The notes under the pieces: model-generated
Databases searched by the model: none
What the model was told of the DNA's origin: nothing
The model's input: only the letters and a program-made list of their open reading frames with translations
Program-made: the position numbers and the translations under genes
From: Clostridia bacterium
GTDB lineage: Bacteria; Bacillota; Clostridia; UMGS1883
Reading direction: 5' to 3'
Length of the DNA: 64,000 bases
Assembly (NCBI GenBank): GCA_051866635.1
Contig: JBJDXJ010000063.1
Coordinates: 1 to 64,000 of the forward strand
In this document: in pieces, positions 8,501-61,700 of the stretch
How the letters are laid out: each line of letters opens with the position of its first letter
Numbering within the stretch: position 1 is the stretch's first letter

Positions 8501-10006
8501 AAATGTTCTTTCAGAGTCTAGTGTCTTTCCATCAGTTTTCTTCATTAATGGATCTAAACCAAGAAGAATTTCGTCACCATCGCTTAATTTGTCCCCATCA
8601 GAATCATAATTACAAGGGTCAGTACCATACGTATTTACTTCATCAGAATCGTTTAAACCATCGTTATCTGTGTCTTTTTTTATAGGATCTGTACCTAAAT
8701 CAATTTCTTCTTTATTTGTTAATCCATCCTCATCTGCATCTTCATCTGCATCCGCTATACCATTTTCATCAGAATCTGCATTTGTAGGATCGGTACCTGT
8801 TAAATAAATTTCAGCATAGTTGCTTAACCCATCATTATCAGTATCATAGTCATTAGGATCAATTCCAAATGCTGCGGCGATCTCATCAGGAATTGCCTCT
8901 TGTTCTGCGAATACAGCAGTGATTACCACCTTTTTTGCTGGCATTTTAAATGTTGTTGTTTTACTATTAACATCTTCAAATGTTCCGCCATTATTAGATT
9001 CCCATCTTACAAAAACACAATTTTCATTAGGTGTTGCAGTTAAAGTAACAATACTGTTCTTTACGTAATTACCAGCAACACTCATATCTACTGAACCGTT
9101 CTCAACATCAGCAAACGAAAGAGAATACTGGGTGGATTTTGAGGATTCGCCACCACCGCCACCGGAAGAAGCCTTTTTAATAGTATATTCAACACTTGTA
9201 ACATCACTTACAAATACACCTTTTTTAACTGTAACAGCCTTTAAAGTAGCTGTGCTTGAAATGGAAATTTCCTTTTCGTACTTTGTACTCTTTACAGTAG
9301 GTTCTGTTCCGTCTGTTGTGTAATAGATTTCAGCACCTTCTGTAGTAGTTGTAAGTGTAACCTTCTGTGTGGAAGAATAAGTACCTGTCTGTACACTTGC
9401 TACAGGTGCAACAAGATCGCATTTCATTCCCTGTGCGACCATTACAGCAATATCACCACGTGTTGCAGATTTACCCTTTTCACCTTTAAGGTTAGATGTA
9501 ATACCGCTTTTAGTTGCCTTGTCGATGTATGCCTTTGACCAGTCTTCGGGGTCAACAGTTATATCCTTATCCAAGCCAAGTGCACATACCACCATCTTAA
9601 CTGCTTCTTCGTAGAGTACAGCTTCTTCAGGGCGGAAGCTACCGTCTAAATAGCCGTTAACAATGCCTTCGTTATTGGCAATATTAATATAACCGCACGC
9701 CCAGTGAGACTCGTCCACGTCAGCAAATTTTGTATCACCTTTTGCTTTTTCTGCATCGTCTGCTTTGTCGATTACTCTGCAGATAACAGTTGCCATTTCT
9801 GCTCTTGTAATTGACTTTTCCGCACCAAATGAGCCGTCCAAATATCCTGTCAAAACGCCAAGTTTGGACAGTACTTCTGCAGAAGATGCATAGTATTCTG
9901 TGCCTTTAACGTCAGTAAACACAGCTTCTTCTGCCATACCAGCTGCAGGCACAATGCTCATTATCATCATTATTGCCAGCAGTATACTTACAAATTTTCT
10001 CATCAC
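5537..10006 (-). CDS. Cell-surface protein: signal peptide, 3x SLH, Fn3-associated/CHB_HEX_C-like, InlB-B-like repeat, Ca-binding DxDxDG repeats, vWA, class-3 lipase
   Basis: ITRAEMA SLH motif; IYYTTDGTEPT; DTDNDGLxxxxEI..GTDP repeats; vWA MIDAS DIVFIIDTTGSM; VAVRGT, HKGF and GHSRGG lipase motifs. Confidence 0.88.
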   Translation of the reverse strand: MMRKFVSILLAIMMIMSIVPAAGMAEEAVFTDVKGTEYYASSAEVLSKLGVLTGYLDGSFGAEKSITRAEMATVICRVIDKADDAEKAKGDTKFADVDESHWACGYINIANNEGIVNGYLDGSFRPEEAVLYEEAVKMVVCALGLDKDITVDPEDWSKAYIDKATKSGITSNLKGEKGKSATRGDIAVMVAQGMKCDLVAPVASVQTGTYSSTQKVTLTTTTEGAEIYYTTDGTEPTVKSTKYEKEISISSTATLKAVTVKKGVFVSDVTSVEYTIKKASSGGGGGESSKSTQYSLSFADVENGSVDMSVAGNYVKNSIVTLTATPNENCVFVRWESNNGGTFEDVNSKTTTFKMPAKKVVITAVFAEQEAIPDEIAAAFGIDPNDYDTDNDGLSNYAEIYLTGTDPTNADSDENGIADADEDADEDGLTNKEEIDLGTDPIKKDTDNDGLNDSDEVNTYGTDPCNYDSDGDKLSDGDEILLGLDPLMKKTDGKTLDSERTFTQELSENNIAEELLLEDNDAVPSLTLTASGNINNSVVVSTTCSNDFSDSRAIVGEAIDVFGETITKGTLTFTLQNEDISLLSVGDTYETFNPYLICKYNDDSSTDYLDTDYDISSNTLSASIDGEGTYFVMNVKNLFDELGLVMPAIADLASLTDPDPMELMSLDEVEENKQSQNNNSNESTEEISLFSADEIVKDVDVVAASEETEKVILMASSGAMAQADIVFIIDTTGSMGDEINNVKNNVNSFVDALKSKGVSAALALVDYQDITHDGYDSTRVHKNGSSNWFYDMDAYKEKIATLYADDGGDTPECAVDALETARLLDMRASAGKIFVLVTDANYKVDNRYGIPSMAAEIELLKNAGVSCSVVSPSSEKSTYYNLYNDTNGIWANIYGNFNTELTKLADKIGEEIVGEGYWIYLQGPVPVPVRLDAMPEEGSDVDTDKDGIADIEELESASPTGEIDLDELIKTVSRGAITGTDYGIVKMYKYKSSPIEPDTDFDGIDDIEDPNPKDNTIEAILYDQVEEGINVKYTMDYRYFINSEHSNTTFNKELSSMGAVFATVAYHKDLDIKSGINKTVNTLEVFNTFGLSNTRDYDLAELSDDDGLSKSYGDDDLSEMLVGHRKINYNGSDKEIIIVAVRGTNGSIKEWSSNFDVGSTHEDYWDRDNDDWQNHENHKGFDVATNRLYGLLNGYIDTYVDPLAEKSIFICGHSRGGAIANLLGARFEDDPEFDSYTYTFASPNVTTDANAKNYNTIFNIINTDDIVTELPLTSWNFIRYGVDKKASVGDDYENRFFGAQEGTWEWLINANKTSDKLDYNKNGHVNTTVSQFGKVVSSRNELYSLPDNSEELKDYALILDEEYETYDEALSAAENKYNSYSFRLQRACEVGVYTEEKGIFDKRTVYKPVIFQKPDFLNMNIAEMAVGNMGDGMGYDVAKKYKAAKNAFVATAADQAKGFIGSITTFFRIGGMGHGHWPETYYLLGRYYK

Positions 10007-47697: not shown

Positions 47698-47783
47698 TGT
47701 GAGGGAGTAGCAAGCGTACTTTTACGTAGCAAGTCAACATACTGGGCTGACGCTCTGGCTTGTTTTAAATTGCGAGACTCATG
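47698..47783 (+). ncRNA. yybP-ykoY manganese riboswitch
   Basis: GAGGGAGTAGC...GTCAACAT...GCGAGACTC signature between the promoter and mntP. Confidence 0.85.
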
Positions 47784-47827
47784 TGTAACTGTGAAGCTAT
47801 GCATGGAGTCTGTCCTTTTGTAAGTCA

Positions 47828-47860
47828 CCAAGCATGGTTTTCACCGTGCTTGTTTTTTTT
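47828..47860 (+). terminator. Riboswitch-controlled leader terminator
   Basis: CAAGCATGG-ttttca-CCGTGCTTG followed by a T8 run before the mntP RBS. Confidence 0.8.
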
Positions 47861-47885
47861 CATTTAGATACTGGAGGAAATAGAG

Positions 47886-48467
47886 ATGAATTTTGGATTT
47901 GCATTAATTATCAACAGCGTACTTTTAGGCATAGGACTTGCAATGGATGCCTTTTCGGTATCTCTCGCAAACGGACTTAACGAACCTATGATGCGTAAGC
48001 GTAAAATGTGTGCCATTGCGGGCACCTTCGGTTTTTTTCAGGCGTTGATGCCTATGATAGGTTGGTTCTGTATCCATACCATAGTCCAATATTTTCAGAC
48101 CTTTGAAAAGTTTATTCCATGGATTGCACTTATACTTTTAGGTTATATAGGCACAAGTATGCTTTATGAGGGCATAAAGGGCGATGAAGCGTGCGAAAAG
48201 CCAAGAGTAGGCATCTTAGCCCTTCTTGTACAGGGCATCGCAACAAGCATTGACGCTCTTTCCGTAGGCTTTACAATTGCCGATTATGATTTGTTTTCTG
48301 CACTTTTTGCATCACTTATTATTGCCCTTGTCACCTTCATAATATGTATGGTAGGTCTCTTAATAGGAAGAAAAATGGGTACCTGTCTTGCAAATAAGGC
48401 AAGCATTTTAGGCGGTGTAATTCTAATCTTTATAGGTATTGAAATATTCATATCGAATATATTCTGA
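47886..48467 (+). CDS. mntP: Manganese efflux pump
   Basis: GLAMDAFSVS, FQALMP, ATSIDAL; Mn riboswitch upstream. Confidence 0.95.
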   Translation: MNFGFALIINSVLLGIGLAMDAFSVSLANGLNEPMMRKRKMCAIAGTFGFFQALMPMIGWFCIHTIVQYFQTFEKFIPWIALILLGYIGTSMLYEGIKGDEACEKPRVGILALLVQGIATSIDALSVGFTIADYDLFSALFASLIIALVTFIICMVGLLIGRKMGTCLANKASILGGVILIFIGIEIFISNIF

Positions 48468-48480
48468 TAACGAGAAAAAT

Positions 48481-48643
48481 GGGCTGTAAAAAAGTCAACA
48501 CTGAGATAACAAAAAGACCATTTCGGGACTGTCCCAACAAAACCTCGCAAGGTTTCTTTGGCAAATTGTCTCCCAATTTGCCATAAGGGGGACTGTCCCA
48601 AATGGTCTTAATTTATTTCTTTAGAGACTTTTTTTACAGCCTC
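48481..48643. mobile_element. MITE-like structured repeat, copy 3
   Basis: GGGCTGTAAAAAAGTC ... GACTTTTTTTACAGCCTC; core 48506-48604 identical to copy 1. Confidence 0.8.
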
Positions 48644-48687
48644 TTTTTGTGTAAAGTATTTACGAGACAGATGATATATTAGAAATT

Positions 48688-48723
48688 AAAAAGGTTACGG
48701 TTTTGATTTTCCGTAACCTTTTT
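48688..48723 (-). terminator. Terminator closing the TIR/SPFH block
   Basis: AAAAAGGTTACGG...CCGTAACCTTTTT. Confidence 0.8.
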
Positions 48724-48726
48724 AAA

Positions 48727-48900
48727 TTACTGTGCAGGTTTTACTGCATTTGCTCCACATGAAGGGCAAAGATTATCTGCTCTATACACCTTATCAGGAT
48801 ATTTCTTTGCTCTTAAACAATGAATGCACCATGTAGAACCACACTTACTACAGCGGAACATATTTGCTCCCGAAGTTTTACATAAAGGACAATATGCCAT
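48727..48900 (-). CDS. Small zinc-finger protein (57 aa, 4 CxxC pairs)
   Basis: GAGGTG RBS; CPLC, CSKC, CIHC, CPSC; terminator follows immediately. Confidence 0.75.
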   Translation of the reverse strand: MAYCPLCKTSGANMFRCSKCGSTWCIHCLRAKKYPDKVYRADNLCPSCGANAVKPAQ

Positions 48901-49024
48901 AAAAATCACCTCTTGCATTTTATTATTATAACGCTGATAACAGTAATTATTTTAACATTGGCATTTTTTCTGCAACAATATCACTAAAATATTTCGCTAC
49001 AACATCTTTCTGTTATTATTTTTA

Positions 49025-49582
49025 TTATCTCGTTTCTACAATTTCTAACGAAAATTCACACAGTGCAGCATTGAGCTGCGTTTCTAATTATTCTGCTTCG
49101 GCTTGTGTAAAATCACCATTTATCGTGCATGAATCAGTATTTATTTCTTGCGTAATATGCGGAGCAAAAATGACGTTATCATCTATCGTAATCTGAATAT
49201 AATTATTGGGGATTGATATTTGCGAAACTTCGTATGTGGCTTGTTTGAATTTGTCTTGTCCTTGTTTTGTGAAATTCAATTTGATGTAATAACTATCGCT
49301 TTCATCTTGTCCTGCACTTACCGCACTTATATCATTTCCTGTTAGCAGAATATTATTTTTATAATCCGTAAATTTAAGAGCCTTATCGGAAAAATTCAAC
49401 ATTTCCGCCATCTGTGTAATATTGTCCTGCATGGGTAATGTAACTTCAATTTTATCATCACCTTTTATTTCTGTCTTCGCATTGACAAATCCTAAGTTTT
49501 TCAGATAATCCATATGTTTTTCTTTCGCTGTTTGTATATCATTTTGGGGATTGTCGGAATGCAACTTATAAACAATAGTAGT
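49025..49582 (-). pseudogene. SecD P1-head-like domain, in frame with the upstream lipoprotein but bounded/interrupted by TGA (49585) and TAA (49090)
   Basis: KIEVTLP, LKFTD...LLTGNDI, IKLNF...G..KF..AT, IDD....P.I...I....TING.FT..EAE*LETQLNAALCEFSLEIVE; no convincing start or RBS of its own. Confidence 0.7.
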
Positions 49583-50398
49583 TCATGGTTTAGTTTTCGT
49601 ATTTTGTAACAATTCCTTTTTGACATCTTCCAAACTATTATAAGTTCCAACCTCTTTTAAATCACTATCAACGACAGCCCAAACCGTTTTTGATACATAA
49701 GGCGGTCCATATATTGCCGCTATTCTTGATAATGTATTTTGGTCTAAACTTGACCTTACAATATCATAGTGACTCTCTGCCCATAACGAACTCCAATTAT
49801 AAACCATTTCAGAAGATTGCGTTGTATAATATATAGGTACTGCATTGTTTTCTTCAAAAAGAACAGTAACATCATTATTGGATTCTATGTTGGGAAAAAT
49901 TTTCATAGTTGAATTGCTTATAATATTTTTGGCTTTTTCAGTTGATATAATTCCGTTTGTTCCTGTTATTTCACGCAAATATTCTTCTGCATATTCTTTG
50001 TTTTCAAGGGCATTTACACCATATTGTTCTATGTATTTTTTAAATATAGCAATACTTTTAATGTTTGTATCTTTGTCACTATTCCATATTTCCTGCTGGA
50101 CAACATTAAGGGGTGTATATCCAAATATCGGAACGACAAGTTTTTTTGTTTCTGAATTTACAATAACAAAACCATAACAATCATCGATGTTTACTAAAAC
50201 TAATTTATTGTTATCGCTTCTATCTAAGCCTTGTGTATCATTTTTCAAATCAAGAATTGTCTCAATTTTACTTGATTCAAACTCATAACCATTCTCGTTG
50301 AGTATTTCTCTCAATCTTCTGTCAGACAGGTTATTTCCGCAAGCAGATAAACAAATAACTGTTAAAATTGCCGTCAGATACATTACAATTTTTTTCAT
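49583..50398 (-). CDS. Lipoprotein of unknown function
   Basis: GGAGGG RBS; MKKIVMYLTAILTVICLSA-C lipobox. Confidence 0.8.
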   Translation of the reverse strand: MKKIVMYLTAILTVICLSACGNNLSDRRLREILNENGYEFESSKIETILDLKNDTQGLDRSDNNKLVLVNIDDCYGFVIVNSETKKLVVPIFGYTPLNVVQQEIWNSDKDTNIKSIAIFKKYIEQYGVNALENKEYAEEYLREITGTNGIISTEKAKNIISNSTMKIFPNIESNNDVTVLFEENNAVPIYYTTQSSEMVYNWSSLWAESHYDIVRSSLDQNTLSRIAAIYGPPYVSKTVWAVVDSDLKEVGTYNSLEDVKKELLQNTKTKP

Positions 50399-50474
50399 TT
50401 CATTTTCCCTCCAATTTTCATACTTTGAAAAATATATCTGTGTGTATAACCGATTATTATCTTTATAAATCAAA

Positions 50475-52259
50475 TTACTTCTTAGGCTTATACCTGTTAA
50501 TTAAATCGGAAATATAACTTAGTGACTGCATATTCAAGGATAAATCTATAGATTTACAAACTTTTTTTACGTCCAATTCAGTTAATGCCATATTCGTAAG
50601 GTTCAATGTTGTATCTTTCGTAATAGCATTTAGAATTAGTTTGGTATTTTTATCCAATTCTCTATTTCCGCTTTCCTCTTCAGCCAATATCATTTTTGCT
50701 TTTTGCTTTGCTATAATTGTATTATACTCTGAATACAATAATATTACAGGCATAAGAAATTCTGCAACTATGGCAAGAAAAAATAATAACAAAACAAACT
50801 GCGGTGTCCCATTACGCCTATTTGCTATAATATTCCAAGAAACAAACAAAACGGGAATACATATAGCTTCGGTAATTACAAATTTTTTTAGCATAGCTTT
50901 TTTTGCCATATCTTTCAAGGCAAAATAATCGTTTTCAAGTTTTGTAAATTTTTGATGTAATGCTAATTCGGACTGTTCTTTTTTAGCCTTTTCCTCTTGC
51001 TCTTTTGCCAATTTTTCTTCGGCAATTTTTTTATATTTAGCCTGTGCCGTTTCGCAATAGTTAATCAAAACCGGCTTAAAATTATCATCAGCAAATCGTA
51101 ACGCATTTTGATAACTCATTGATTTACTATAATCAACTGCTCTGTTTGCAAGGTTTTCCTCTTTGTTAACTTTAATTTCAATCATTAGTTTTCCAAGATA
51201 TGCACGAGCATTTTCCGGCTCGTGGTTTAACACTTGCTCTAAAAGCTCATCGGCTTTTTGCCATTCCGCAGCTTCAATAAGTATAAATGCTCTTTTCAAT
51301 AGAGGCTCGGATTGAAAAACTTCCGTTTTATTGACAACATTAACATTTGGTTGTGCCGTTTCCTTTTGCAGTACCTTTTTTATTCCTCTTATCAAATCCT
51401 GAACAAATCCGATTTTGCTCATATCCTGACTTTGAAACATTGAAATCTCGTCCGGTAAATCATATGCGTCCATATCACGATAGCAAGGAATAATCATTTT
51501 TGACTTGTCACGTTTTGCCAAATCCAAAAATCTTGCCCATTCATTTTTAACCCAAATTGCATTAAAATATTCTTTGCTTGTACCGACAACGAGCATTACC
51601 TTTGCGGAATTTAGGGCAGAAAATATGTACGGCTCATATTCCGTTCCGAGTTTGTCCTCCAAGGTTATTCTGCTGAAAAATACCTTGTAACCCTCGTTAG
51701 TAAGCTGATAGTAAATATCTTGTGCAAGAGTTGAGTCGATTGTTCGTTTACCGCTGTTATCCGTTTCTTTATAGCATATGAAAATGTCATAGGGAGCTTC
51801 TTTAGAGGCTATCGACAATATATTTTTTTGTATTGCGGAAATTGCTTCGGCTTCCTGCTTATATAAGCTTTGAGCCTGATAATCGTCCGAATATTCAACA
51901 GCGGCTTTATAGTCCAGATCAGACAATATAGATTCATTCTGCACTCTGTGGCAGGTAGGCACTCGTTTATGCGTTTTCGGGTCCTCAACATATTCGATAC
52001 CATACCTTGAAAGAACACATCCCCAGTATGCTTCTGCATTCCTATTATCCTCTGTTAAAATGCTTTCATAAGCCGAAAGAGCCTTATCAAACTCGTTTTG
52101 CAGTCTGAAATGGTTTGCTCTGTCAAACAAATTCAGTATTCGTTCATCATTAACATTCGGCAGCGTCATTGTACTTCCGCAACTGTCGCATACACCGACT
52201 TTCTGATTTTCGGTAATCTCAATATTACCTCCGCACATTTTACATTTTAATATTGCCAT
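50475..52259 (-). CDS. Zn-ribbon-TPR-TIR-TPR-coiled-coil-2TM protein
   Basis: CKMC/CDSC; TPR; TIR motifs YDIFICYK, GYKVFFS, ALNSAKVMLVV, WVKNEW, IIPCY; second TPR; two TM helices. Confidence 0.88.
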   Translation of the reverse strand: MAILKCKMCGGNIEITENQKVGVCDSCGSTMTLPNVNDERILNLFDRANHFRLQNEFDKALSAYESILTEDNRNAEAYWGCVLSRYGIEYVEDPKTHKRVPTCHRVQNESILSDLDYKAAVEYSDDYQAQSLYKQEAEAISAIQKNILSIASKEAPYDIFICYKETDNSGKRTIDSTLAQDIYYQLTNEGYKVFFSRITLEDKLGTEYEPYIFSALNSAKVMLVVGTSKEYFNAIWVKNEWARFLDLAKRDKSKMIIPCYRDMDAYDLPDEISMFQSQDMSKIGFVQDLIRGIKKVLQKETAQPNVNVVNKTEVFQSEPLLKRAFILIEAAEWQKADELLEQVLNHEPENARAYLGKLMIEIKVNKEENLANRAVDYSKSMSYQNALRFADDNFKPVLINYCETAQAKYKKIAEEKLAKEQEEKAKKEQSELALHQKFTKLENDYFALKDMAKKAMLKKFVITEAICIPVLFVSWNIIANRRNGTPQFVLLLFFLAIVAEFLMPVILLYSEYNTIIAKQKAKMILAEEESGNRELDKNTKLILNAITKDTTLNLTNMALTELDVKKVCKSIDLSLNMQSLSYISDLINRYKPKK

Positions 52260-52261
52260 CT

Positions 52262-53305
52262 TTACCACATCCGGTCCTCATACGATGTATTTTCAATTCC
52301 TTGTTCTCTTAATTTTTTCACCATTTTATCAAGTTTTCCACGCCAGAATTTTTTAAACCAAATGGTATTACCAAACCATTTTACAATTGTTGGGCTTATT
52401 GCATAATATGTTCTGATAAACGCTCTGCCATACCAAGTTTCAGCTAATATATAGTCACGATAACGGCGAAGCGTCCAAACCTCAGGACAGTCATAAGAGC
52501 CATATACACAGGTAGCAACATAACAGCCACCGCTACTGAACGTCAATCCTTGATATGACGGGTTGTATTTCTTTATTTTGTCCACATATGAAAGAATTTC
52601 CTTCTTTGATTCTTCACTGGTAAATTTGTAATTAATGCGTATATCAATTCCTTTTTCCCACGCTTTTGCACACATTGTACCGACTTCGGGGTGTTCAATA
52701 TATCGTTTTTCAAGTTGATCTCCCAACTCAAATAATAATAAATATAAAGCCTTGCAGTTTTCTACAAAATCAGACTCAACACCACGTGTATCTTTAAATC
52801 TTTGGTAGTGATTTTGAGCATTGATGTATAATAATTGGGCAAAGTCTTCTGTTTTTGTGTATACCTGCACAAATGCGTTTGATTCCTCTTCGGATGTCGT
52901 ATAATTGTCTATAAGATCAAAAACACTATTCAAGCAATTGGATAATTTATATGCCGCAGATGATATTTCTCCTATTTTACATTGAGCAACATGAAAGTAA
53001 GTTGTATAATATGCTGCTTCCCAGCTGTTTGGATCCTCAACCAAAATCATATCATAATATTTTTCAGCTTGTGCATCATCATTGTTATCTTTTGCACGTC
53101 TTGCTACAGTGTATAAATTATTTAATCTTTCTAATTTATCTGCCGAAAAATTTGTATCAAATTTTTTTGCTTTTGATTTAACACTAACATTTCCGTGTGA
53201 TACGGCATGCTCGTCTTTAAAAACCTCGCCACATTGCCGGCATATATATACATTGCCGTCTTTATCCAACTCGCCACCACAGGATTTGCATTCTAAATAT
53301 GACAT
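52262..53305 (-). CDS. Zn-ribbon-TPR protein with C-terminal CFI-box-CTERM domain
   Basis: CKSC/CRQC; TPR-like helix pair; GCYVATCVYGSYDCPEVWTLRRYRD..L.....GRAFIRTYYAISP. Confidence 0.85.
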   Translation of the reverse strand: MSYLECKSCGGELDKDGNVYICRQCGEVFKDEHAVSHGNVSVKSKAKKFDTNFSADKLERLNNLYTVARRAKDNNDDAQAEKYYDMILVEDPNSWEAAYYTTYFHVAQCKIGEISSAAYKLSNCLNSVFDLIDNYTTSEEESNAFVQVYTKTEDFAQLLYINAQNHYQRFKDTRGVESDFVENCKALYLLLFELGDQLEKRYIEHPEVGTMCAKAWEKGIDIRINYKFTSEESKKEILSYVDKIKKYNPSYQGLTFSSGGCYVATCVYGSYDCPEVWTLRRYRDYILAETWYGRAFIRTYYAISPTIVKWFGNTIWFKKFWRGKLDKMVKKLREQGIENTSYEDRMW

Positions 53306-53369
53306 TTCAAAAATACTCTCCTTCTATGTATGATTTTTACTTAGTTTACTATTCCATAGATTTCCTAAC

Positions 53370-53810
53370 TTAATTTGAATATGTTGTCTTTAATTCAACC
53401 TTTTTGGTTTCTTCACAATTTGGGCAGTAAAAACCACCAGTAAAGCTACCGGGGGTGGTTACAGTAGTACTTGGTTCTGTATATCCGCAACTATCACATT
53501 TCTTTTTATAAACTACTTTGTTTTCATGATTATCTTCAATAATTATTGCATTAGAAATTGCAACTGTAGTACTGGATTGTTTATTTTCTTGTACTTGATT
53601 GTAATTTCCGTAATAATTATTTGTAGATGTTGAATTTGTACTTTTTTTATCAGTAGACTCATTCGGTGTTTCTACATAATTATCAACTGATTCGCTATAT
53701 TGCTGATTTGAATCATCTGTGTTTTGATATGTTGAATCGCCTTGTGGTGTGCAAGCTGTTACACAAATCATCGTAAAAATCACTAAAATGTAAGATATAT
53801 GTTTTTGCAT
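53370..53810 (-). CDS. Lipoprotein with low-complexity linker and C-terminal zinc ribbon
   Basis: VTA-C lipobox; S/T/N-rich linker; CDSC...CPNC. Confidence 0.75.
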   Translation of the reverse strand: MQKHISYILVIFTMICVTACTPQGDSTYQNTDDSNQQYSESVDNYVETPNESTDKKSTNSTSTNNYYGNYNQVQENKQSSTTVAISNAIIIEDNHENKVVYKKKCDSCGYTEPSTTVTTPGSFTGGFYCPNCEETKKVELKTTYSN

Positions 53811-53814
53811 TTAA

Positions 53815-54243
53815 TTACCTCCAATAATTTTCCTTTTCTTTTATAAATTCTTTATGTTTTTGTTCCGCCTTGCTGTCAACTTCATTGATATATTCACTGC
53901 CTGCCGTTATAGCGATTATTCTTATTATAAATACCGCTAAAACTGCAATATGTATTACAAGCGTCCATAATACATACAAAGAAATCAAGCAAGCAATTAC
54001 CGAAAAAAACACACTGATTATTGAATATATTACAGCTGTATAAACAAACGCATGACCTTGGGGGGTTTTTGTAGTTTCTCTCTTACCGAACACACAGAGG
54101 CTCAATGCTATACCTATTATTGCAATCAAGGTAAATATATACGAAACAATAAATGTGTCCGTAATTGGAACAACTATAAACAATAGAGATACAACTACCG
54201 CCATAATAATGGCTGATATAATAATTTTTGTGTTATTATTCAT
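53815..54243 (-). CDS. Four-TM membrane protein
   Basis: Four hydrophobic segments; start overlaps the SPFH gene end. Confidence 0.8.
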   Translation of the reverse strand: MNNNTKIIISAIIMAVVVSLLFIVVPITDTFIVSYIFTLIAIIGIALSLCVFGKRETTKTPQGHAFVYTAVIYSIISVFFSVIACLISLYVLWTLVIHIAVLAVFIIRIIAITAGSEYINEVDSKAEQKHKEFIKEKENYWR

Positions 54244-55489
54244 TTGTACCACCTTCTATTCTATACCCACATTCTAAGCAGAATTTAGCACCATTAGGTA
54301 CTTCCTTTCCGCAGTTGGAACAAATAAGTTGTAATTTACCGCCACACTCCATACAGAATTTACCTTTTGGTGTTTTGCTTCCGCATTGAGGACATATCAT
54401 TTCATTGTCTGAAAGCTGTTCAATCTTCGTTCCGCACTCGAGACAGAATTTTGCATTTTCGGGTAAGGTATTACCGCACTTCGGACATATTGAAGTTGAT
54501 TTTGATGTATTCATATTTACTGCATTTCCTATGCTGTCATTTACAACTCCGCCGACAGCACTGCCAACGCTTGTCATGACTCCAAGCCCTATACCCAAGC
54601 CAGCCATATTTCCTCCGCCTTCATTTTTAGCAAAGCCTTCGGCAACATCAAAACCTCGTTCCTGTTGATATGTATAGCCTTCAATCTGACGTTTTGCAGC
54701 CATGCCTTCCGCTTCTAAAATCATTTTCTGCTTTTCGGTTTCTTGCTTAATAATATCAACATTTTGTTGCAATTTTGCTTCTGCAATATCTGCGTACTGT
54801 CTGAAATGCAAACTCTTAAATCGCTTATATGTACTGTCATCTTCGGGTTTTACAATGGTCGTTACAAAGAAATGCACCAACGAAACACCGTATTCCTCAA
54901 AATCAGGAATAAGTAATTTATGTAAGCTTTCCGAAATTTCATTAAGTTTTTCATCAATTTGAAAAATGTTTATTCCGTTATTCCGGATATATGTTGACAA
55001 ATACGTTTTGAACCTTATCATAAGAAAAGCTCTAAACTTTTGTGTCAAGCCTGCTTGTGTAAGTACATTTTCCGTGCCGACTATTTTTACCAAGAGTTTT
55101 TTTGCATCGGAAACTCTCAAACTCATTTCGCCGCTTGCACCTATTTGAAGCGGAAAATTGTATGTGGGTTCCATATATTCAATTTTACTGTCCGTCCCCC
55201 ACCGAATGTTCATTTGCTCGGTTTTATTTATAAAGTATACCTCGCAATGAAATGGTGTTTTATCATTAAAAGGCTTATTAAAAAACTTTCTGATAAGCGG
55301 AATATTTTGAGTTTCTAATGTATGTCTGCCTGCTTCAAAACTATCAAGAAGTTGTCCGTTCATGTAGAAAACCGCTTCTTGCGATTCGTGAACGATAAGT
55401 TGTGTTGTTGTATTAAAGTCTTCACAAGGGTGTTTCCATACAAAGGTTGAGTTATCACCCTCATACTTAATTACATCTGCTATTTGCAC
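54236..55489 (-). CDS. SPFH/Band-7-like protein with three C-terminal double zinc ribbons
   Basis: FVWKHP, QLIVHESQEAVF, GRHTLET.NIP, PFHCEVYFIN, WGT; GLGIGLG; three CxxC...KFCxxCG units. Confidence 0.9.
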   Translation of the reverse strand: MQIADVIKYEGDNSTFVWKHPCEDFNTTTQLIVHESQEAVFYMNGQLLDSFEAGRHTLETQNIPLIRKFFNKPFNDKTPFHCEVYFINKTEQMNIRWGTDSKIEYMEPTYNFPLQIGASGEMSLRVSDAKKLLVKIVGTENVLTQAGLTQKFRAFLMIRFKTYLSTYIRNNGINIFQIDEKLNEISESLHKLLIPDFEEYGVSLVHFFVTTIVKPEDDSTYKRFKSLHFRQYADIAEAKLQQNVDIIKQETEKQKMILEAEGMAAKRQIEGYTYQQERGFDVAEGFAKNEGGGNMAGLGIGLGVMTSVGSAVGGVVNDSIGNAVNMNTSKSTSICPKCGNTLPENAKFCLECGTKIEQLSDNEMICPQCGSKTPKGKFCMECGGKLQLICSNCGKEVPNGAKFCLECGYRIEGGTNE

Positions 55490-55626
55490 GCTATACTCAT
55501 ATCCTTTCCAGATCGTTTACTAAAAGTGTACTGTAAGAGAGCTCTTTATATTTGCAGTCTTGATATATTTTGCAATTGCTTTTGCTATTTTATTGAGTTA
55601 ACATTTGGCTCATACGCATCTTCTTT

Positions 55627-55670
55627 AAATAGCTCATTTCACCTAAACAAATAGCTCATTTCACCTAAAC
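55627..55670. repeat. Perfect 22-bp tandem duplication
   Basis: AAATAGCTCATTTCACCTAAAC twice. Confidence 0.95.
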
Positions 55671-56685
55671 CGCTTTGCAATTTTATTCCCAATATACCTT
55701 CATCTTCATACATGTAAAAATAACTACCATTGTAGTAGAGTGAATAAGCATAAATACCATCTATTTCATCTATGTACTCCCATGTTCCGCCCCGAACAAT
55801 TCTACCAAAATCATCAATCTCATCTAATAAATCTTTAACTTCCAAACTGTCCCGAAATGTACCATTATAAGCATTATAAGACGGCATGCTGACAGACATA
55901 TGTCCATCACCTTCAAATGTGTATTGAACACCGGTAGCTTTTTTCCATGTGCCGATAATTGCCACTTTGCTTTCAATACTTTTTGCGAGTTTTTTCGCTT
56001 CACTTTTTGTTTTTTCATCAGCATTAACATTCTTCTCTATGTCTTTAAGACATTCGTCCGCAAAAATATATCCACCATCTTCTATAAATTTTTTTGCCGA
56101 ATTAAGATTTTTTATTGCCATCTCTCGTTGAGCTTCTACAAAATCATCAACGTACTTACCATTCGGGTAGTAGTCCATGTACACATCATAAAATCTATTA
56201 ATTTCATATTCATCATCATTACAATTCAACAATTCCGTATAGAGGTCTTCTTCTACATCTTCTTTTAATGCATTAATCTTTTTTATATATCGTTTTTTAT
56301 TGGAATAGGTTTCACTAAATTCTTCAATATCTTCCAATGTATTACGGTAATCGTCATGTTCTTTTTTTACCGGATATTGATATTCATTGACAATTTCCTT
56401 ATACAATTTAGCTTCAGGATTAGGAATTAAAATCATGAGAATTACAAAGGCTACCGAAATAACAGCTATAATAGGCAGGATTTTTTTCTTAAGCGGTTTG
56501 ACATTTCTGGAATAATCTAATTCATAGGAACTTTCCTCTTGTTCTGTTACTTCTGCATTTACAGTTATGGTTTCTTCCTTTTTTATGTTCTTCTCTTGCA
56601 TTTTGTCATCCGATTCATCAGCCTGACATTTTTCACAAAAGCCATTCTCCATAAATTTTCCGCACTTAGGACAAATACTTGACAT
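55639..56685 (-). CDS. Zn-ribbon + single TM + extracellular domain protein
   Basis: GAGGGAG RBS; CPKC/CEKC; KKK-preceded TM; IIGTWK lipocalin-like motif. Confidence 0.8.
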   Translation of the reverse strand: MSSICPKCGKFMENGFCEKCQADESDDKMQEKNIKKEETITVNAEVTEQEESSYELDYSRNVKPLKKKILPIIAVISVAFVILMILIPNPEAKLYKEIVNEYQYPVKKEHDDYRNTLEDIEEFSETYSNKKRYIKKINALKEDVEEDLYTELLNCNDDEYEINRFYDVYMDYYPNGKYVDDFVEAQREMAIKNLNSAKKFIEDGGYIFADECLKDIEKNVNADEKTKSEAKKLAKSIESKVAIIGTWKKATGVQYTFEGDGHMSVSMPSYNAYNGTFRDSLEVKDLLDEIDDFGRIVRGGTWEYIDEIDGIYAYSLYYNGSYFYMYEDEGILGIKLQSGLGEMSYLFR

Positions 56686-56969
56686 ATTAACATCTCCCTC
56701 TGATTATTTATTCTTTATTTATTTTTGCATCCGTCCGTTTTCATAAGAATTGTGCTTACAAGGACACATGCGAAGCACCAAAGAAATACCGGCACATATC
56801 ACCAAAACAGCAGTAATACTATCACACAAATTTGTCTTGGCAGTTTATTACATATTATCACACAACCTAACAAATTGCAACTATTTTTTGATATAATTTT
56901 TAACTATATTTTTGAATGTTTATTTAATTGGCAAAATGGGATAGAATTATAGCAATAGGGGGTTATGCT

Positions 56970-57143
56970 ATGGATTTTATTATAAAAAAGACTACAAGTT
57001 CCAACCGCACGGTCAGAATGCCTGACGAATTAATCGAAACTATCAGCACCATTGCCAACGAAAAGGGCATTTCCTTCAATCAGCTTGTTATTCAGTGCTG
57101 TGAATATGCGTTGGACCACCTTAAGGACGAGAAAACAGAATAA
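56970..57143 (+). CDS. Ribbon-helix-helix (Arc/CopG-like) DNA-binding protein
   Basis: AGGGGG RBS; NRTVRMPDEL...I...ANEKGISFNQLVIQCCEYAL. Confidence 0.85.
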   Translation: MDFIIKKTTSSNRTVRMPDELIETISTIANEKGISFNQLVIQCCEYALDHLKDEKTE

Positions 57144-57169
57144 AACGTCTTTTTTGTTTTATTATAGTC

Positions 57170-57221
57170 AAAAGCACAGAAAAAGTCCCGGACAAATTGT
57201 CCAAGACTTTTCTGTGCTTTT
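57170..57221. terminator. Bidirectional terminator
   Basis: AAAAGCACAGAAAAAGTC...GACTTTTCTGTGCTTTT between convergent genes. Confidence 0.75.
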
Positions 57222-57225
57222 TATT

Positions 57226-58698
57226 TTAATATACAGGTACTAATCTATTCTCCTCCAATGCATAGCCTGTTATATCGCCCAAATCATACCATTCAACGTT
57301 AAACTTTTTTGTATATGCAGTCATATAGAAGGAATACTCTTTTGAAAACATATCTCCTTCGCAGAGATAAAAGCCTGTTTCCTCATCGTATTTTATACAC
57401 CATGCAATACAATAATTAAAATTATTGTAAAACTGATGCTCGATAACCCCGATGCATCCTTCGTTAAGCCCTATCAACAGCTCGGGCACATCGTCATAGT
57501 CCATATCACAACAGATTATATCGGCGTTTTTTCTGTCTGGCGGATTAAAAAGGCTGTAATCGTACTGCCCATTGTAGGCAAATTCACCTGTGAAATCGTG
57601 TCCGTAGTCATCATTAAGATAAACCTTAAGTTTGCCGTCTGAAAGGGTTATGTCGGCATTGACCAAAGTATTGTTTTCTCCCAGCTTTATTTTGCCTTTT
57701 TTATTTCCGTCCTCTAAAAACAGCAGATGGTCCCAGGGCTTGTACATTGAAAAAATCGCCACATGATTATATGTAGGGTATTTGCTGTACTCCTCCATTT
57801 TGCTGTCAGATGCAAATCCGGTAAAATATGTATCTTCATCTAATGTGATTTCCGCTTCTGTATCTTTTTCATCTATTTCGGCAGTTATGCTATTGGAAGG
57901 TTTCTCCATATAGAGGGCATTATCCGTTGGGTTTGTGGGCTGTTTTTTGTCAAAGGCGGCGTTACTTTTTCCATTTATCAGACAAATGCAGGCAACAAGT
58001 GCCAAAAGGGCAGATGCGGCACATATTGCAGGAGGTATTATACGGCAAAATATTATTGCACGATGTAAGGCTTTAACGTTTTTATACCGCTGGGACGGGT
58101 CAAGCCGCTTGCATTTTTCCGATATTTTGTGCAAACAACCCTTTATACCTAAGTAATCCAATACAGCCTGTATTGTTGCACCAAAGGCATATATATCTGT
58201 TTTAAAATCTGTGGGCATCATGCCGTACTGTTCAATAGGGGCATAACCGAAGGTGCCCATTTTTTCGGTATCTTGCCGTATTTCAGACCTGTAAATGCGG
58301 GCAATATCGTAATCAATCAACCATATGTGATTTGACGCATCAACAAGTATATTGTCGGGCTTAATATCTCTGTGGATAATATTTTGACTGTGTAGGACTG
58401 CTAATGCATCTGTCAATTGTAGCATAATGGAGCGTATTTCTTTTTTTGTGAACTTACGACCTTCCTCCATAAGTGTTGATAAGGACTTGCCTTCAATATA
58501 TTCCTCAACAACAACTGTTTTATCGCCAAATTCCACAGAGAAAATCTTTGGTATGTTGGGGCTTGAAATTTTTTGAAGGTTTTTGTAAATTTCACGCTTG
58601 TCCCCTTCTATTTCCCTTTTGAGATATTTTTTGCCGTTATCTGTACAGAGAACAATTTTCTGCCTGTCATTTTGTTTTAAAATCTCACATTCTTTCAA
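57226..58698 (-). CDS. Membrane-anchored Hanks-type Ser/Thr protein kinase
   Basis: TTG start after GGAGGG; EEYIEG, IIHRDIKPDNI, LIDYDIAR, GTFGYAP, DIYAFG; TM then extracellular domain. Confidence 0.9.
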   Translation of the reverse strand: MKECEILKQNDRQKIVLCTDNGKKYLKREIEGDKREIYKNLQKISSPNIPKIFSVEFGDKTVVVEEYIEGKSLSTLMEEGRKFTKKEIRSIMLQLTDALAVLHSQNIIHRDIKPDNILVDASNHIWLIDYDIARIYRSEIRQDTEKMGTFGYAPIEQYGMMPTDFKTDIYAFGATIQAVLDYLGIKGCLHKISEKCKRLDPSQRYKNVKALHRAIIFCRIIPPAICAASALLALVACICLINGKSNAAFDKKQPTNPTDNALYMEKPSNSITAEIDEKDTEAEITLDEDTYFTGFASDSKMEEYSKYPTYNHVAIFSMYKPWDHLLFLEDGNKKGKIKLGENNTLVNADITLSDGKLKVYLNDDYGHDFTGEFAYNGQYDYSLFNPPDRKNADIICCDMDYDDVPELLIGLNEGCIGVIEHQFYNNFNYCIAWCIKYDEETGFYLCEGDMFSKEYSFYMTAYTKKFNVEWYDLGDITGYALEENRLVPVY

Positions 58699-58769
58699 TC
58701 AAATCCCTCCTTGCAAAATGTTACAATTTGTATTATCATAATTATATTAAATTTAAGGAGTGTTTGTCA

Positions 58770-59192
58770 ATGGCTTCAATTACGGAAGAACTGTTAACCG
58801 AATTAAAAAACGCCTCTGATTTACAAAGCTTTTTTAAAAAGCACGAAAATGACTTTATCGAAAAGAGCCTTGATGTTTATTTAAACGAGTTTTTAGCCGC
58901 AAAAGGGATAAGCATTTCGGACATTATAAAATCATCCGGTGCAGGGGAATATGCTTACAAAATATTTAAAGGGGAAAGAAAGCCCTCGAGAGATATTCTC
59001 ATATCAATAGCATTCGGTATGGGGCTTTCTTTGCAGGAAACACAACTTATGCTACGCATTGCAAAATTTGCTGTTTTAGACCCCAGGGATAAACGTGACG
59101 GAGTTATAATATATGCATTAACCCACAATATGACAGTATTTGAGGCTGACGATGTTTTAGACGAAAACAATTTCACCACAATTAACAGTTAA
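58770..59192 (+). CDS. XRE-like HTH protein, divergent from the kinase
   Basis: AAGGAG RBS; YAYKIFKGERKPSRDILISIAFGM.L...ETQ..L......L.PR.KRD. Confidence 0.8.
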   Translation: MASITEELLTELKNASDLQSFFKKHENDFIEKSLDVYLNEFLAAKGISISDIIKSSGAGEYAYKIFKGERKPSRDILISIAFGMGLSLQETQLMLRIAKFAVLDPRDKRDGVIIYALTHNMTVFEADDVLDENNFTTINS

Positions 59193-59262
59193 CTTAAGAA
59201 GGGGTTGGATTTAATAAAACTTTCCTTATCTAAGTGCATTTCTTAATGCTCAACTTTTTTTA

Positions 59263-59301
59263 TAATAATGGGGTCAGGCTTGTCACCTGACCCCATTATT
59301 A
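59263..59301. terminator. Perfect 16-bp hairpin between convergent genes
   Basis: TAATAATGGGGTCAGG...CCTGACCCCATTATTA. Confidence 0.7.
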
Positions 59302-59332
59302 CAGAACGGTTTTTCTTCGTATAAATACACTT

Positions 59333-60673
59333 TTAATTTTTCAAACTCTGCAAAGGTGCCGGAATTCTGCCGCCACGGGCAATAAATTCACTGCAGGACT
59401 TATTGTTAACACTCATAACGGGACCTGAACCTAAAAGTCCTCCGAATTCAACCACATCCCCAACCTTCTTACCCTTGGCAGGGATAACTCTTACGGCTGT
59501 TGTTTTACTGTTAACCATACCGATTGCGGCTTCATCTGCAATAATACCGGAAATTGTTTCTGCCGTTGTGTCCCCCGGCACTGCAATCATATCAAGACCT
59601 ACAGAACACACACAAGTCATTGCTTCAAGTTTTTCAAGAGTTAAGCACCCTGACTTTACAGCGGAAATCATACCTGCATCTTCGCTTACGGGAATAAATG
59701 CACCCGACAAACCGCCAACGTAACTGGATGCCATAACACCGCCCTTTTTAACGGCATCGTTAAGCAGAGCAAGTGCGGCAGTAGTGCCGTGTGTACCGCA
59801 CTGTTCCAAGCCCATTTCCTCAAGAATGTATGCAACAGAGTCACCTACCGCAGGGGTGGGAGCCAATGAAAGGTCCACAATACCGAAGGGGACATTCAAT
59901 CTCTTTGATGCTTCTACAGCCACCATCTGACCCATTCTTGTTATTTTGAAGGCCGTTTTTTTCACAGTGTCAGCCACAACGCCGAAGGGCTGACCCTTTA
60001 CCTTTTCCAAAGCACATTTTACAACGCCGGGACCTGATACGCCCACATTGATTACACATTCCCCTTCACCTGTGCCGTGGAAAGCACCTGCCATAAAGGG
60101 ATTATCTTCAACTGCATTTGCAAACACAACAAGCTTTGCACAAGCCATATCATCCAATTCTGAGGCTTTTTTTATAACCTGACCCATCTGTCTTACAGCA
60201 TCCATATTGATGCCTGCTTTTGTGCTTGCCACATTAACAGATGAACACATTTTACTTGTTTCTGCCAAGGCTTCGGGAATAGAGTCCACAAACAAGCGGT
60301 CAGAATCAGTATAGCCCTTTGCCACCAGTGCGGAGTAGCCGCCTATAAAGTTTACGCCTGTAGTTTCTGCCGCACGGTCAAGTGCCTTTGCAAACTCCAC
60401 ATAATGACCACAGCTTGATGCCACATGTGATATGGGAGTTACGGAAATACGCTTATTAATAATGGGAATACCGAATTCCTTTTCAATATCCACACCTGTT
60501 TTTACAAGATTTTCTGCGTATTTTGTTATTTTATCATACACTTTCACCGTTGCTTTTTTGTAGTCCTCACAGGCACAATCCAAAAGTGATATACCCATGG
60601 TGATGGTGCGGACATCAAGATGCTCGGCATTTATCATGTTCAGTGTTTCATAAATTTCAAGATTATTTATCAT
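59333..60673 (-). CDS. PFL-like DUF711/UPF0210 family protein
   Basis: [40 protein letters not shown]. Confidence 0.93.
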
Positions 60674-60684
60674 AGGGGTACCTC

Positions 60685-60954
60685 TTATATTCTGTGCATA
60701 GATTCAAAGGTCTGCTTTCTCTGAATGGTAATCTGTACGCCGATTTCCTCACCGAGAGAAGTAAGCTCCTGACGTAATAAGTCAAAGTCTACATTACATT
60801 CCTTTGTGTCCACCATGGCTGTCATAACGAAAATATCTTCCATAATTGTCTGGGATATATCGATAATATTTACATCTCTTTCGTATAAAACGGTACTTAC
60901 CTTAGAAATAATACCTTTTTTGTCCTTGCCTATTACTGCAACAACTGCTTTCAT
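60685..60954 (-). CDS. ACT-domain protein (UPF0237)
   Basis: [10 protein letters not shown]...NIIDISQT...F..MHRI; usual partner of DUF711. Confidence 0.92.
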
Positions 60955-60968
60955 AACTTCAATCCTTT

Positions 60969-61700
60969 CTAACGCTGCTTCATAGCTTCATAAATCATTA
61001 ATGCACCTGCTACGGAAGCATTAAGACTGTTAACATTTCCCTTCATTGGTATGCTCACCAAAAAGTCACATTTTGAGGCGGTAAGTCTGCTTATTCCCTT
61101 ATCCTCGCCGCCTATAACAAGTGCAACTGCACCTTTGAAGTCCGCTTCGTAAATGCTTCTGTCACCTTTGGCATCAGCACCTGTAACCCACACGCCCTGT
61201 TCCTTTAAATAATCAATGGTCTGAGCTATATTAGAAACCCTTGCCACGGGGGTAAAACTTGCCGCACCTGCGGAGGCCTTAACGGCAGAAGCGGTTAAGG
61301 TTACACCGTCGTGCTTTGAAATAATCAAGCCGTGAACACCGGCACAGTTGGCTGTACGTATAATTGAGCCTAAGTTGTGGGGGTCCTCCAAGTGATCCAG
61401 AATTACGATAAATGGAGCTTCACCCTTTTCTTTGGCAATGTTTAAAATATCGTCAACCGTTTTGTATTCATAAGGCGGTATTCGTGCAATAACGCCCTGA
61501 TGCACACCTGTTTCACTCATGGAATCAAGTTTTTTATTATCCACTTCAACTACCTGTATTCCCTTATCCCTTGCCATTGCGATAATCTGCGTAAGGCTTC
61601 CTTTGTTTTCGCCACGCTTAACGTATATCTTATCTATCTGCCGTCCGCTTCTTATAGCCGCAGACACGGCATTTCTTCCTTCAATTACATCTTCATACAT
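60969..61700 (-). CDS. rlmB: 23S rRNA (G2251-2'-O)-methyltransferase
   Basis: GRNAV, HQGV, DPHNLGSIIRT, VIGGE.KG, IPM.G..NSLNAS. Confidence 0.93.
   Translation of the reverse strand: MYEDVIEGRNAVSAAIRSGRQIDKIYVKRGENKGSLTQIIAMARDKGIQVVEVDNKKLDSMSETGVHQGVIARIPPYEYKTVDDILNIAKEKGEAPFIVILDHLEDPHNLGSIIRTANCAGVHGLIISKHDGVTLTASAVKASAGAASFTPVARVSNIAQTIDYLKEQGVWVTGADAKGDRSIYEADFKGAVALVIGGEDKGISRLTASKCDFLVSIPMKGNVNSLNASVAGALMIYEAMKQR

Follow-up and report, generated by a model that had tools for sequence, protein, structure and literature searches.

A recurrent SPFH, four-transmembrane and TIR gene trio in Clostridia and its possible role as a membrane-organised immune module

We analysed the first 64,000 nucleotides of contig JBJDXJ010000063.1 (assembly GCA_051866635.1, Clostridia bacterium, GTDB lineage UMGS1883), a stretch referred to here as the window, and focus on a cluster of nine open reading frames that lie head to tail on its minus strand from 56685 to 48727. 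A sequence-only reading had described this cluster as a candidate membrane-associated system of eight or nine co-oriented genes that combines a TIR protein with an SPFH protein. G1 (55639–56685) encodes a protein with a zinc ribbon (two CxxC motifs), one transmembrane (TM) segment at residues 64–82 and an outer domain of about 265 residues, and is followed by the three core and several accessory genes. The core consists of G2 (54236–55489), a soluble SPFH protein of the Band_7_1 family whose six CxxC motifs form three C-terminal zinc ribbons; G3 (53815–54252), a protein with four hydrophobic segments (4-TM); and G6 (50475–52268), in which a zinc ribbon, TPR, TIR_2, a second TPR, a coiled coil and a two-TM hairpin follow one another. 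Between the core genes lie G4 (53370–53810), an accessory lipoprotein with the lipobox VTAC and two C-terminal CxxC motifs, and G5 (52262–53305), a recurrent accessory protein with an N-terminal zinc ribbon and a CFI_box_CTERM domain. Downstream of G6 are G7 (49583–50473), a lipoprotein with the lipobox LSAC; G7b (49088–49564), a SecDF_P1_head fragment (E = 4.8e-15); and the accessory G8 (48727–48918), a 63-residue protein with four CxxC motifs.

The intergenic gaps from G1 to G8 are, in order, 149, −17, 4, 64, −7, 1, 18 and 169 nt, and the operon ends directly after G8 at a hairpin resembling an intrinsic terminator (48690–48726, minus strand), with a 15-bp stem, a predicted energy of −18.8 kcal/mol (z −6.0) and a U-rich tail; none of 200 shuffled sequences folded equally well. 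The co-oriented layout and the single closing terminator that had been read from the sequence were thus confirmed, as was the presence of CxxC motifs in six products (G1, G2, G4, G5, G6 and G8), and the listed domain content was broadly recovered by Pfam, NCBIfam, hydrophobicity, and CxxC and lipobox motifs. Some details needed correction. The SPFH protein does carry zinc ribbons, but three ribbons rather than three double ones; G5 has the ribbon and the CFI box, whereas Pfam gives no TPR; and the lipoprotein and SecD-like features both exist but belong to a single frame broken by a TGA codon. The operon was also called AT-rich, and its GC content is indeed lower than that of the remaining window, but only mildly so (33.8% versus 37.5%). 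No Rfam families or tRNAs were found at 47–60 kb or 44–64 kb of the window.

The SPFH assignment of G2 rests on a Band_7_1 match at residues 25–217 (PF13421, E = 2.8e-38), accompanied by Zn_Ribbon_1 and DZR matches, and the six CxxC motifs fall at residues 335–407. The protein has no TM anchor, only a Gly-rich hydrophobic stretch at 298–316, and the CxxC pairs are absent from 8 of 26 related SPFH genes. The start of G3 overlaps the stop of G2 by 17 nt, and in related loci the 4-TM gene lies invariably directly 3′ of the SPFH gene. The 4-TM proteins constitute one family in three size classes (approximately 140, 233 and 502 residues), for which Pfam holds no model. A complex prediction for the SPFH and 4-TM proteins scored 0.00 against a mark of 0.32 and gave no answer on contact. 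In other Band_7_1 SPFH subfamilies of Clostridia (loci L054–L056 and L161–L166), the next gene in each case encodes a membrane protein, frequently one that bears an N-terminal zinc ribbon. Judging by these gene neighbourhoods, having a membrane partner seems to be a general trait of the family.

The TIR domain of G6 was identified by a TIR_2 match (Pfam, E = 8.5e-12), and the protein ends in two hydrophobic segments followed by a short tail only. In an alignment of 31 family members, the four zinc-ribbon cysteines and residues D161, F163, Y211, E212, P213, W239, V240, E243, W244 and R246 are invariant, and the motif WVKNEW, which includes the catalytic glutamate E243, is unchanged in all 31. 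E243 aligns with the motif glutamate of the flax L6/L7 TIR domains; this residue is missing from six short paralogues and from the TIR proteins of loci L066 and L067. The AlphaFold2 (AF2) model of G6 (pLDDT 83.7) has as its top Foldseek matches the TIR domains of SARM1 and AbTir, followed by SPARTA and plant TIR domains, with TM-scores on the target of 0.66–0.72 for SARM1 and 0.72 for AbTir (7uxu) at a sequence identity of about 20%. G6 has the fold and catalytic glutamate of an enzymatic TIR, and NAD+ cleavage or cyclase activity is predicted.

The most conserved part of the TIR family is the N-terminal 150 residues. This module matches 5415 protein clusters, annotated in their sources merely as TIR or TPR proteins, and TIR_2 is present in 120 of 120 among the matches listed. 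Residues 1–129 of G5 are homologous to the same module (hhalign 96.3%, E = 1.9e-9). Because G5 and the TIR family share it, the module looks like a common docking piece to which differing C-termini are attached. At four loci with a 502-residue 4-TM protein (L042, L069, L075 and L076), a long, glutamate-bearing TIR paralogue alternates with a short one that is without the TPR module and carries a deletion across the glutamate motif, an arrangement that suggests pairs of active and inactive TIR proteins. A shufflon among the tandem TIR paralogues was considered and rejected, as all lie on one strand.

Our comparisons across genomes indicate that the trio of SPFH, 4-TM and TIR genes, rather than the whole operon, is the conserved unit. 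TIR and SPFH genes were counted as co-located when on one strand and no more than 5 kb apart. When 61 related genomes were searched with G2 and G6, SPFH was found in 15 and TIR in 9, and the two genes are same-strand neighbours in eight of the nine TIR-positive genomes; in the ninth they are on separate short contigs. A class-wide sample of 399 genomes gave TIR matches in 38 and SPFH matches in 95. Leaving out six TPR-only matches and two fragments gives 30 genomes in which the match covers the TIR domain, and 24 of these, with coordinates read by hand, have an SPFH gene within 5 kb on the same strand; of the other six, two are at contig edges, one has the pair separated by 270 kb and three lack an SPFH match. 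A scan of one genome per species returned at least 676 relatives, from which 77 loci were kept: 49 have a same-strand SPFH gene and 50 a 4-TM gene, and five more begin with a 4-TM gene at the contig edge. One locus of the scan, L104, belongs to an Anaerotignum isolate; SPFH and TIR genes were found in it, but not a 4-TM gene. Typically, SPFH comes first, then 4-TM, an optional gene for a soluble protein (the slot gene), and one to four TIR genes. Co-conservation, which the sequence-only reading had proposed as a check on the system, therefore holds for the core trio, whereas G4, G5 and G8 occur only in close relatives. The idea that eight or nine genes make up one conserved unit is not supported: G1, G7 and G7b had no homologue in any fetched locus, and G7/G7b looks broken. 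From gene order and distribution, we conclude that the SPFH, 4-TM and TIR genes are a real, widespread and mobile unit across many Clostridia families.

Several observations bear on this mobility. Occurrence is patchy, as the TIR counts of 9/61 and 38/399 indicate, and genomic contexts differ. Homologues of one tyrosine recombinase are present in 15 of 110 fetched loci, and the genes directly upstream of the module include Phage_integrase in 8 of 22 cases, as well as a resolvase and a MobL relaxase. A comparison with the same-genus genome G001 places all parts of the operon within a 10.9-kb island (48464–59329). An mntP-like gene and a gene for a 446-residue protein lie 100 nt apart in G001, whereas their counterparts in the window are 10,866 nt apart, and blastn aligns G001 only to window positions 47698–48463 and 59330–60998. 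Since the flanking genes nearly abut in G001, the block is an insertion relative to that genome. The TIR query matched nothing in phage or plasmid collections and only three loci in IMG/VR, and on these grounds a phage-borne origin was set aside.

The C-termini of the TIR proteins in relatives are of binding types: DUF6273, an RCC1 propeller or PASTA, with BspA-type leucine-rich repeats (LRRs) found in related zinc-ribbon or neighbouring genes. Among 12 proteins bearing DUF6273 or RCC1, 11 have one or three hydrophobic segments between the TIR and that domain, which would place the C-terminal domain outside the cell. At two loci this domain is targeted by a diversity-generating retroelement (DGR). 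In both L061 and L105 the TIR gene is followed by a bAvd gene; a reverse transcriptase adjoins in L061, and none was found in L105. The two members of the template/variable repeat pair are at 2779–2905 and 3472–3598 in L061 (127 nt; 16 of 17 mismatches at template A) and at 9164–9319 and 9857–10012 in L105 (156 nt; 17 of 21 mismatches at template A), and in both cases the template matches the 3′ end of the TIR gene, its last 127–156 nt, which encodes the C-terminal DUF6273 domain. No such template/variable repeat pair was found in the window.

Relatives also carry genes associated with defence. The slot between the 4-TM and TIR genes, together with neighbouring positions, holds domains of the conflict type: DUF4365, DUF2971, weak HEPN matches, HNH, a stand-alone TIR, SIR2_2, RES and FRG. 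PADLOC matches inside relatives' operons, in the cases listed, include PDC-S31 (6e-27, 1e-20), PDC-S66 (8e-40), PDC-S15 (2e-19), PDC-S48 (1e-36), DRT UG26 (1e-139) and Aga_REase (about 1e-9 at three loci), and Cas9 adjoins L066. In L068 (6783–8030), a UG26-type defence reverse transcriptase (PADLOC E = 1e-139), RES and FRG genes are interleaved with four TIR paralogues.

How does this trio relate to systems already described? A close parallel for the SPFH and membrane-protein pair is the PspA-YdjGHI (SamGHI) module of Bacillus subtilis. There, the membrane proteins YdjG and YdjH recruit YdjI, a soluble protein, which then recruits PspA (PMC8581546, PMC11237479, PMC13713150); the YdjI family joins a band-7 domain to a C-terminal zinc ribbon, and YdjG has N-terminal zinc ribbons (PMC8581546, PMC11237479). 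Like YdjI, G2 is soluble, belongs to Band_7_1, has zinc ribbons at its C-terminus and is encoded beside membrane-protein genes. The window differs in that the SPFH protein is paired with a 4-TM protein from a different family and has a TIR protein as its presumed client, and in that the module is mobile and patchy; YdjI-like SPFH proteins of Clostridia are only 28–30% identical to G2. PspA, TPM (the domain of YdjH) and NTF2 (the YdjG type), which would mark a PspA-YdjGHI operon, had no match in G1–G8 (Pfam, NCBIfam). The SPFH proteins of the HflK/C type can build large rings that enclose a membrane patch and a client protein (cited in PMC10936438), but G2 is without a TM segment and belongs to Band_7_1.

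On the TIR side, the module shares with Thoeris a bacterial TIR with a catalytic glutamate in a defence-like context, but its operon has no ThsA (SIR2/SLOG or Macro), and in G6, a membrane protein, the TIR is accompanied by a zinc ribbon and TPR. No ThsB model matched G6 in PADLOC at E ≤ 0.01, and the Pfam scan of G1–G8 found no SIR2, SLOG or Macro; CD-NTases and nucleotide cyclases were likewise not found in G1–G8 (Pfam, PADLOC, NCBIfam). Membership in Thoeris, CBASS or Pycsar was rejected because the partner genes are absent, as the sequence-only reading had anticipated. It had also found no named system to fit, and the PADLOC check it suggested bore this out, since no v2.0.0 model matches G1–G8. 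PADLOC v2.0.0 likewise gave no family for the SPFH, 4-TM and TIR proteins of L041 or the TIR protein of L058; one weak PDC-S66 match was seen for the TIR protein of L069. SARM1 and AbTir share the TIR fold and glutamate with G6 but differ in the domains around the TIR, at about 20% identity, and activity in G6 is predicted only. Rst_2TM_1TM_TIR consists of two small TM proteins plus a TIR protein and is not known to include an SPFH gene. As an analogy, with no claim of family, Toll-like receptors also have a variable ligand-binding domain and a TIR domain separated by membrane segments, as in the relatives, where the two would lie on opposite sides of the membrane; in the module the order is reversed, with the TIR N-terminal and of the enzymatic type, and there is no homology beyond the TIR domain. 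PMC10907252 describes DGR targets linked to TIR effectors in bacterial conflict systems, which in that case have STAND or MoxR NTPases at their core and belong to multicellular bacteria. The rewriting of the TIR-protein C-terminal domain by DGRs in L061 and L105 resembles those systems; here, in contrast, there is an SPFH scaffold and no NTPase, the hosts are gut Clostridia, and the window itself has no DGR. Our literature searches, which covered main texts rather than supplements, found no description of the core unit.

Taken together, we lean towards a model in which the trio is a membrane-organised TIR immune module that matches no named system and is in part akin to YdjI/PspA scaffolding and in part to Toll-like receptors. 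This reading rests on gene linkage, island status, the TIR fold and glutamate, the association with defence genes, and DGR targeting in relatives; how its proteins make contact, what sets the module off, which reaction the TIR catalyses and what phenotype follows are inferred. In this model, soluble SPFH (G2) would serve as the scaffold, tethered to the membrane by the dedicated 4-TM protein (G3), and one or more proteins of the G6 type would act as receptor-enzymes whose zinc ribbon, TPR and TIR, which are without a signal peptide, would be cytoplasmic, followed by the membrane segments. The small ribbon-helix-helix (RHH) gene that is often attached would be the regulator. In most relatives the TIR protein would present a variable domain at its end to the outside, whereas the window copy is without that domain and has G1, G4, G5 and G8 in its operon instead. 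In line with the SPFH clustering of TIR and the NAD+ depletion proposed in the sequence-only reading, the SPFH/4-TM assembly would keep the TIR receptors in a membrane patch until an envelope event (such as phage attachment or injection) or the binding of an outside ligand led to TIR oligomerisation; the activated TIR would then cleave NAD+ or produce an NAD-derived signal, and growth of the infected cell would be arrested.

A distant variant of the module occurs at three loci (L065:4100–12120, L066:4270–12030 and L067:3820–11570). Here an SPFH gene, whose product has a double zinc ribbon, is followed by a 1-TM protein, a gene of 115–119 codons (L066 and L067 only), two helical proteins of about 200 residues, an AAA ATPase with a Vps4_C match, and TIR proteins; the L065 variant ends with a zinc-ribbon trypsin-like protease. 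The helical proteins have a weak likeness to ESCRT-III (CdvB, CHMP1B, CHMP4-7 and Vipp1 rows), in matches that serve as leads only. Their AF2 model (pLDDT 62.9) gave no Foldseek match at E ≤ 0.001, and a profile search against PDB sequences returned only SNAP-25 coiled-coil noise. A bolder version of the model, which we put forward tentatively as something that could be true but may well not be, is that the module is a bacterial counterpart of Toll-like receptor signalling, with membrane receptors that join a variable outer domain, DGR-hypermutated in some lineages, to a cytoplasmic enzymatic TIR, that are corralled by SPFH and that trigger an NAD+-based shutdown when phage or another attacker is sensed at the surface, and with a scaffold evolutionarily tied to machinery of the ESCRT-III/Vps4 type.

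The same distant loci feature in an alternative that we consider unlikely, namely that the trio is an envelope-stress or membrane-repair module in which SPFH and its membrane partner detect membrane damage in the manner of PspA-YdjGHI, and the TIR is a stress signal generator or adaptor rather than an immune effector. G2 falls in the Pfam family described for YdjI (PMC11237479, PMC8581546), zinc-ribbon membrane proteins also accompany other SPFH subfamilies in Clostridia, and in L065–L067 SPFH and TIR genes adjoin the Vps4-like ATPase and the two coiled-coil proteins. For a housekeeping stress system one would expect vertical inheritance, however, and the module is patchy and inserted as an island, with recombinases, DGR targeting and embedded defence genes in relatives and with PspA absent from the window's operon. 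The variable C-termini could instead indicate non-immune sensing of surface ligands, such as kin or other cells, host or dietary polymers, or cell-wall fragments, with the TIR making a nucleotide signal. DUF6273, RCC1 propellers, BspA-type LRRs and PASTA are all binding types, gut and rumen Clostridia hold a very large number of family members (the 5415 clusters), and DGRs also diversify ligand-binding proteins outside immunity. Set against this are the lack of a visible downstream signal receptor in the operons, the embedded nuclease-, HEPN-, SIR2-, RES- and TIR-type genes, which are typical of conflict systems, and the retained glutamate with its SARM1/AbTir likeness, which fits NAD+ destruction; we regard this explanation as improbable. 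It is hard to credit that the genes are a chance neighbourhood with no system at all. Unique genes such as G1, G7 and G7b, the latter two broken, would fit such a view, but many families and different contexts show SPFH, 4-TM and TIR genes in this order, overlapping or nearly abutting, so that chance is contradicted for the three core genes and holds only for the unique accessory ones.

The immune-module model itself has evidence to contend with. The single studied member of this SPFH family functions in envelope stress, not immunity, and the combination of a Vps4-like ATPase with coiled-coil proteins in L065–L067 points to membrane remodelling, at loci of which two (L066 and L067) have TIR proteins without the catalytic glutamate. 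In 23 of the 77 scan loci, some of them contig-truncated, there is a TIR gene but neither SPFH nor 4-TM within the stretch examined, and because the copies in L048 and L051 sit among housekeeping genes, the TIR protein can evidently stand alone. The genes in the slot may have been inserted independently and need not belong to the system. The outer domain is absent from the window's G6, which bears on what G6 senses. Finally, the related genomes are non-independent samples.

If the immune-module model is correct, it would place defence sensing at the membrane rather than in the cytoplasm, give a bacterial SPFH scaffold a testable role, connect hypermutated receptors to a TIR effector, and offer a prokaryotic parallel to animal receptor-TIR signalling. 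TIR enzymes have been studied well, and so have SPFH scaffolds, but we found no paper and no PADLOC v2.0.0 model that joins the two. Most relatives come from gut and rumen Clostridia that are uncultured, and little is known about how these bacteria defend themselves against phages.

The accessory genes have narrower distributions. G1 matched no Pfam, NCBIfam or PADLOC family and has a homologue in none of the fetched loci; its ESM Atlas matches are hypothetical Bacillota zinc-ribbon clusters, and we conclude that it is lineage-specific. At its 3′ end, a 22-nt tandem duplication (55622–55665) causes a frameshift that replaces the last 14 codons with three and creates the present stop. A G4 homologue occurs in L058 only (51% identity), and in L059 the TIR gene is immediately followed by a G8 homologue (64% identical). 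The CFI box of G5 spans residues 261–329 (NF041770, E = 4.6e-20, 71.2 bits versus a cut-off of 40), and G5 homologues are found in L057, L058, L045, L103 and L115; in our literature searches, no paper was found that contains the term CFI-box-CTERM. As for G7 and G7b (49088–50473), in addition to the TGA that splits the frame, a TAA truncates G7b in its last helix. The only matches of G7b are to housekeeping SecD (25–40% identity), and neither G7 nor G7b has a homologue in any related fetched locus. Another contig of the same genome (L160:1447–1935) encodes an intact paralogue of 162 residues that combines a signal peptide with a SecD-P1-head domain. The broken frame and the intact paralogue elsewhere point to a decayed fusion of a lipoprotein to a P1-head domain, probably an insertion that has since degenerated. 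G7b was rejected as a translocase, being a P1-head fragment only and without a signal peptide.

Besides G1 to G8, the island contains a gene for a 154-residue protein, a Ser/Thr kinase and the RHH gene. The 154-residue gene lies at the island edge (58728–59192, plus strand), had no match in Pfam, NCBIfam or PADLOC, and has a homologue in L058 that is 62% identical and occupies the same position. The kinase (57226–58698, minus strand; Pkinase E = 3.3e-28) has its own terminator-like hairpin at 57180–57212 (15 pairs) and, in L058, a correspondingly placed homologue of 50% identity. Past the kinase domain there is a hydrophobic stretch and then a long C-terminal part that may be extracellular. 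Its PADLOC matches (mad6, PD-T4-6) are limited to the kinase domain, and the kinase accompanies the module in L058. The RHH-like gene (56928–57143, plus strand), divergent from the operon, shows weak HicB, CopG and Arc matches (E = 5e-4 to 1.5e-3) under the curated cut-offs, and its homologues adjoin SPFH in L058 (67%), L071 (73%) and L059 (40%). The module of L058 is thus flanked by the same kinase, 154-residue and RHH genes as that of the window.

Between the RHH gene and G1 lies a putative operon promoter (56816–56884, minus strand), with TTGCAA, a 17-nt spacer and TGTGATAAT. It includes two 14-nt direct repeats, at 56816–56829 and 56852–56865, that are a candidate operator for the RHH protein. 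A matching layout is found immediately upstream of SPFH in L058 and L071, and because the promoter upstream of G1 resembles these, G1 appears to lie between the ancestral promoter and the SPFH gene. At the left edge of the island, a 61-nt palindrome-rich repeat (48513–48573) recurs near the mntP-like gene of G001 at 92% identity, on that gene's other side, and may be a dispersed element resembling repetitive extragenic palindromes (REPs).

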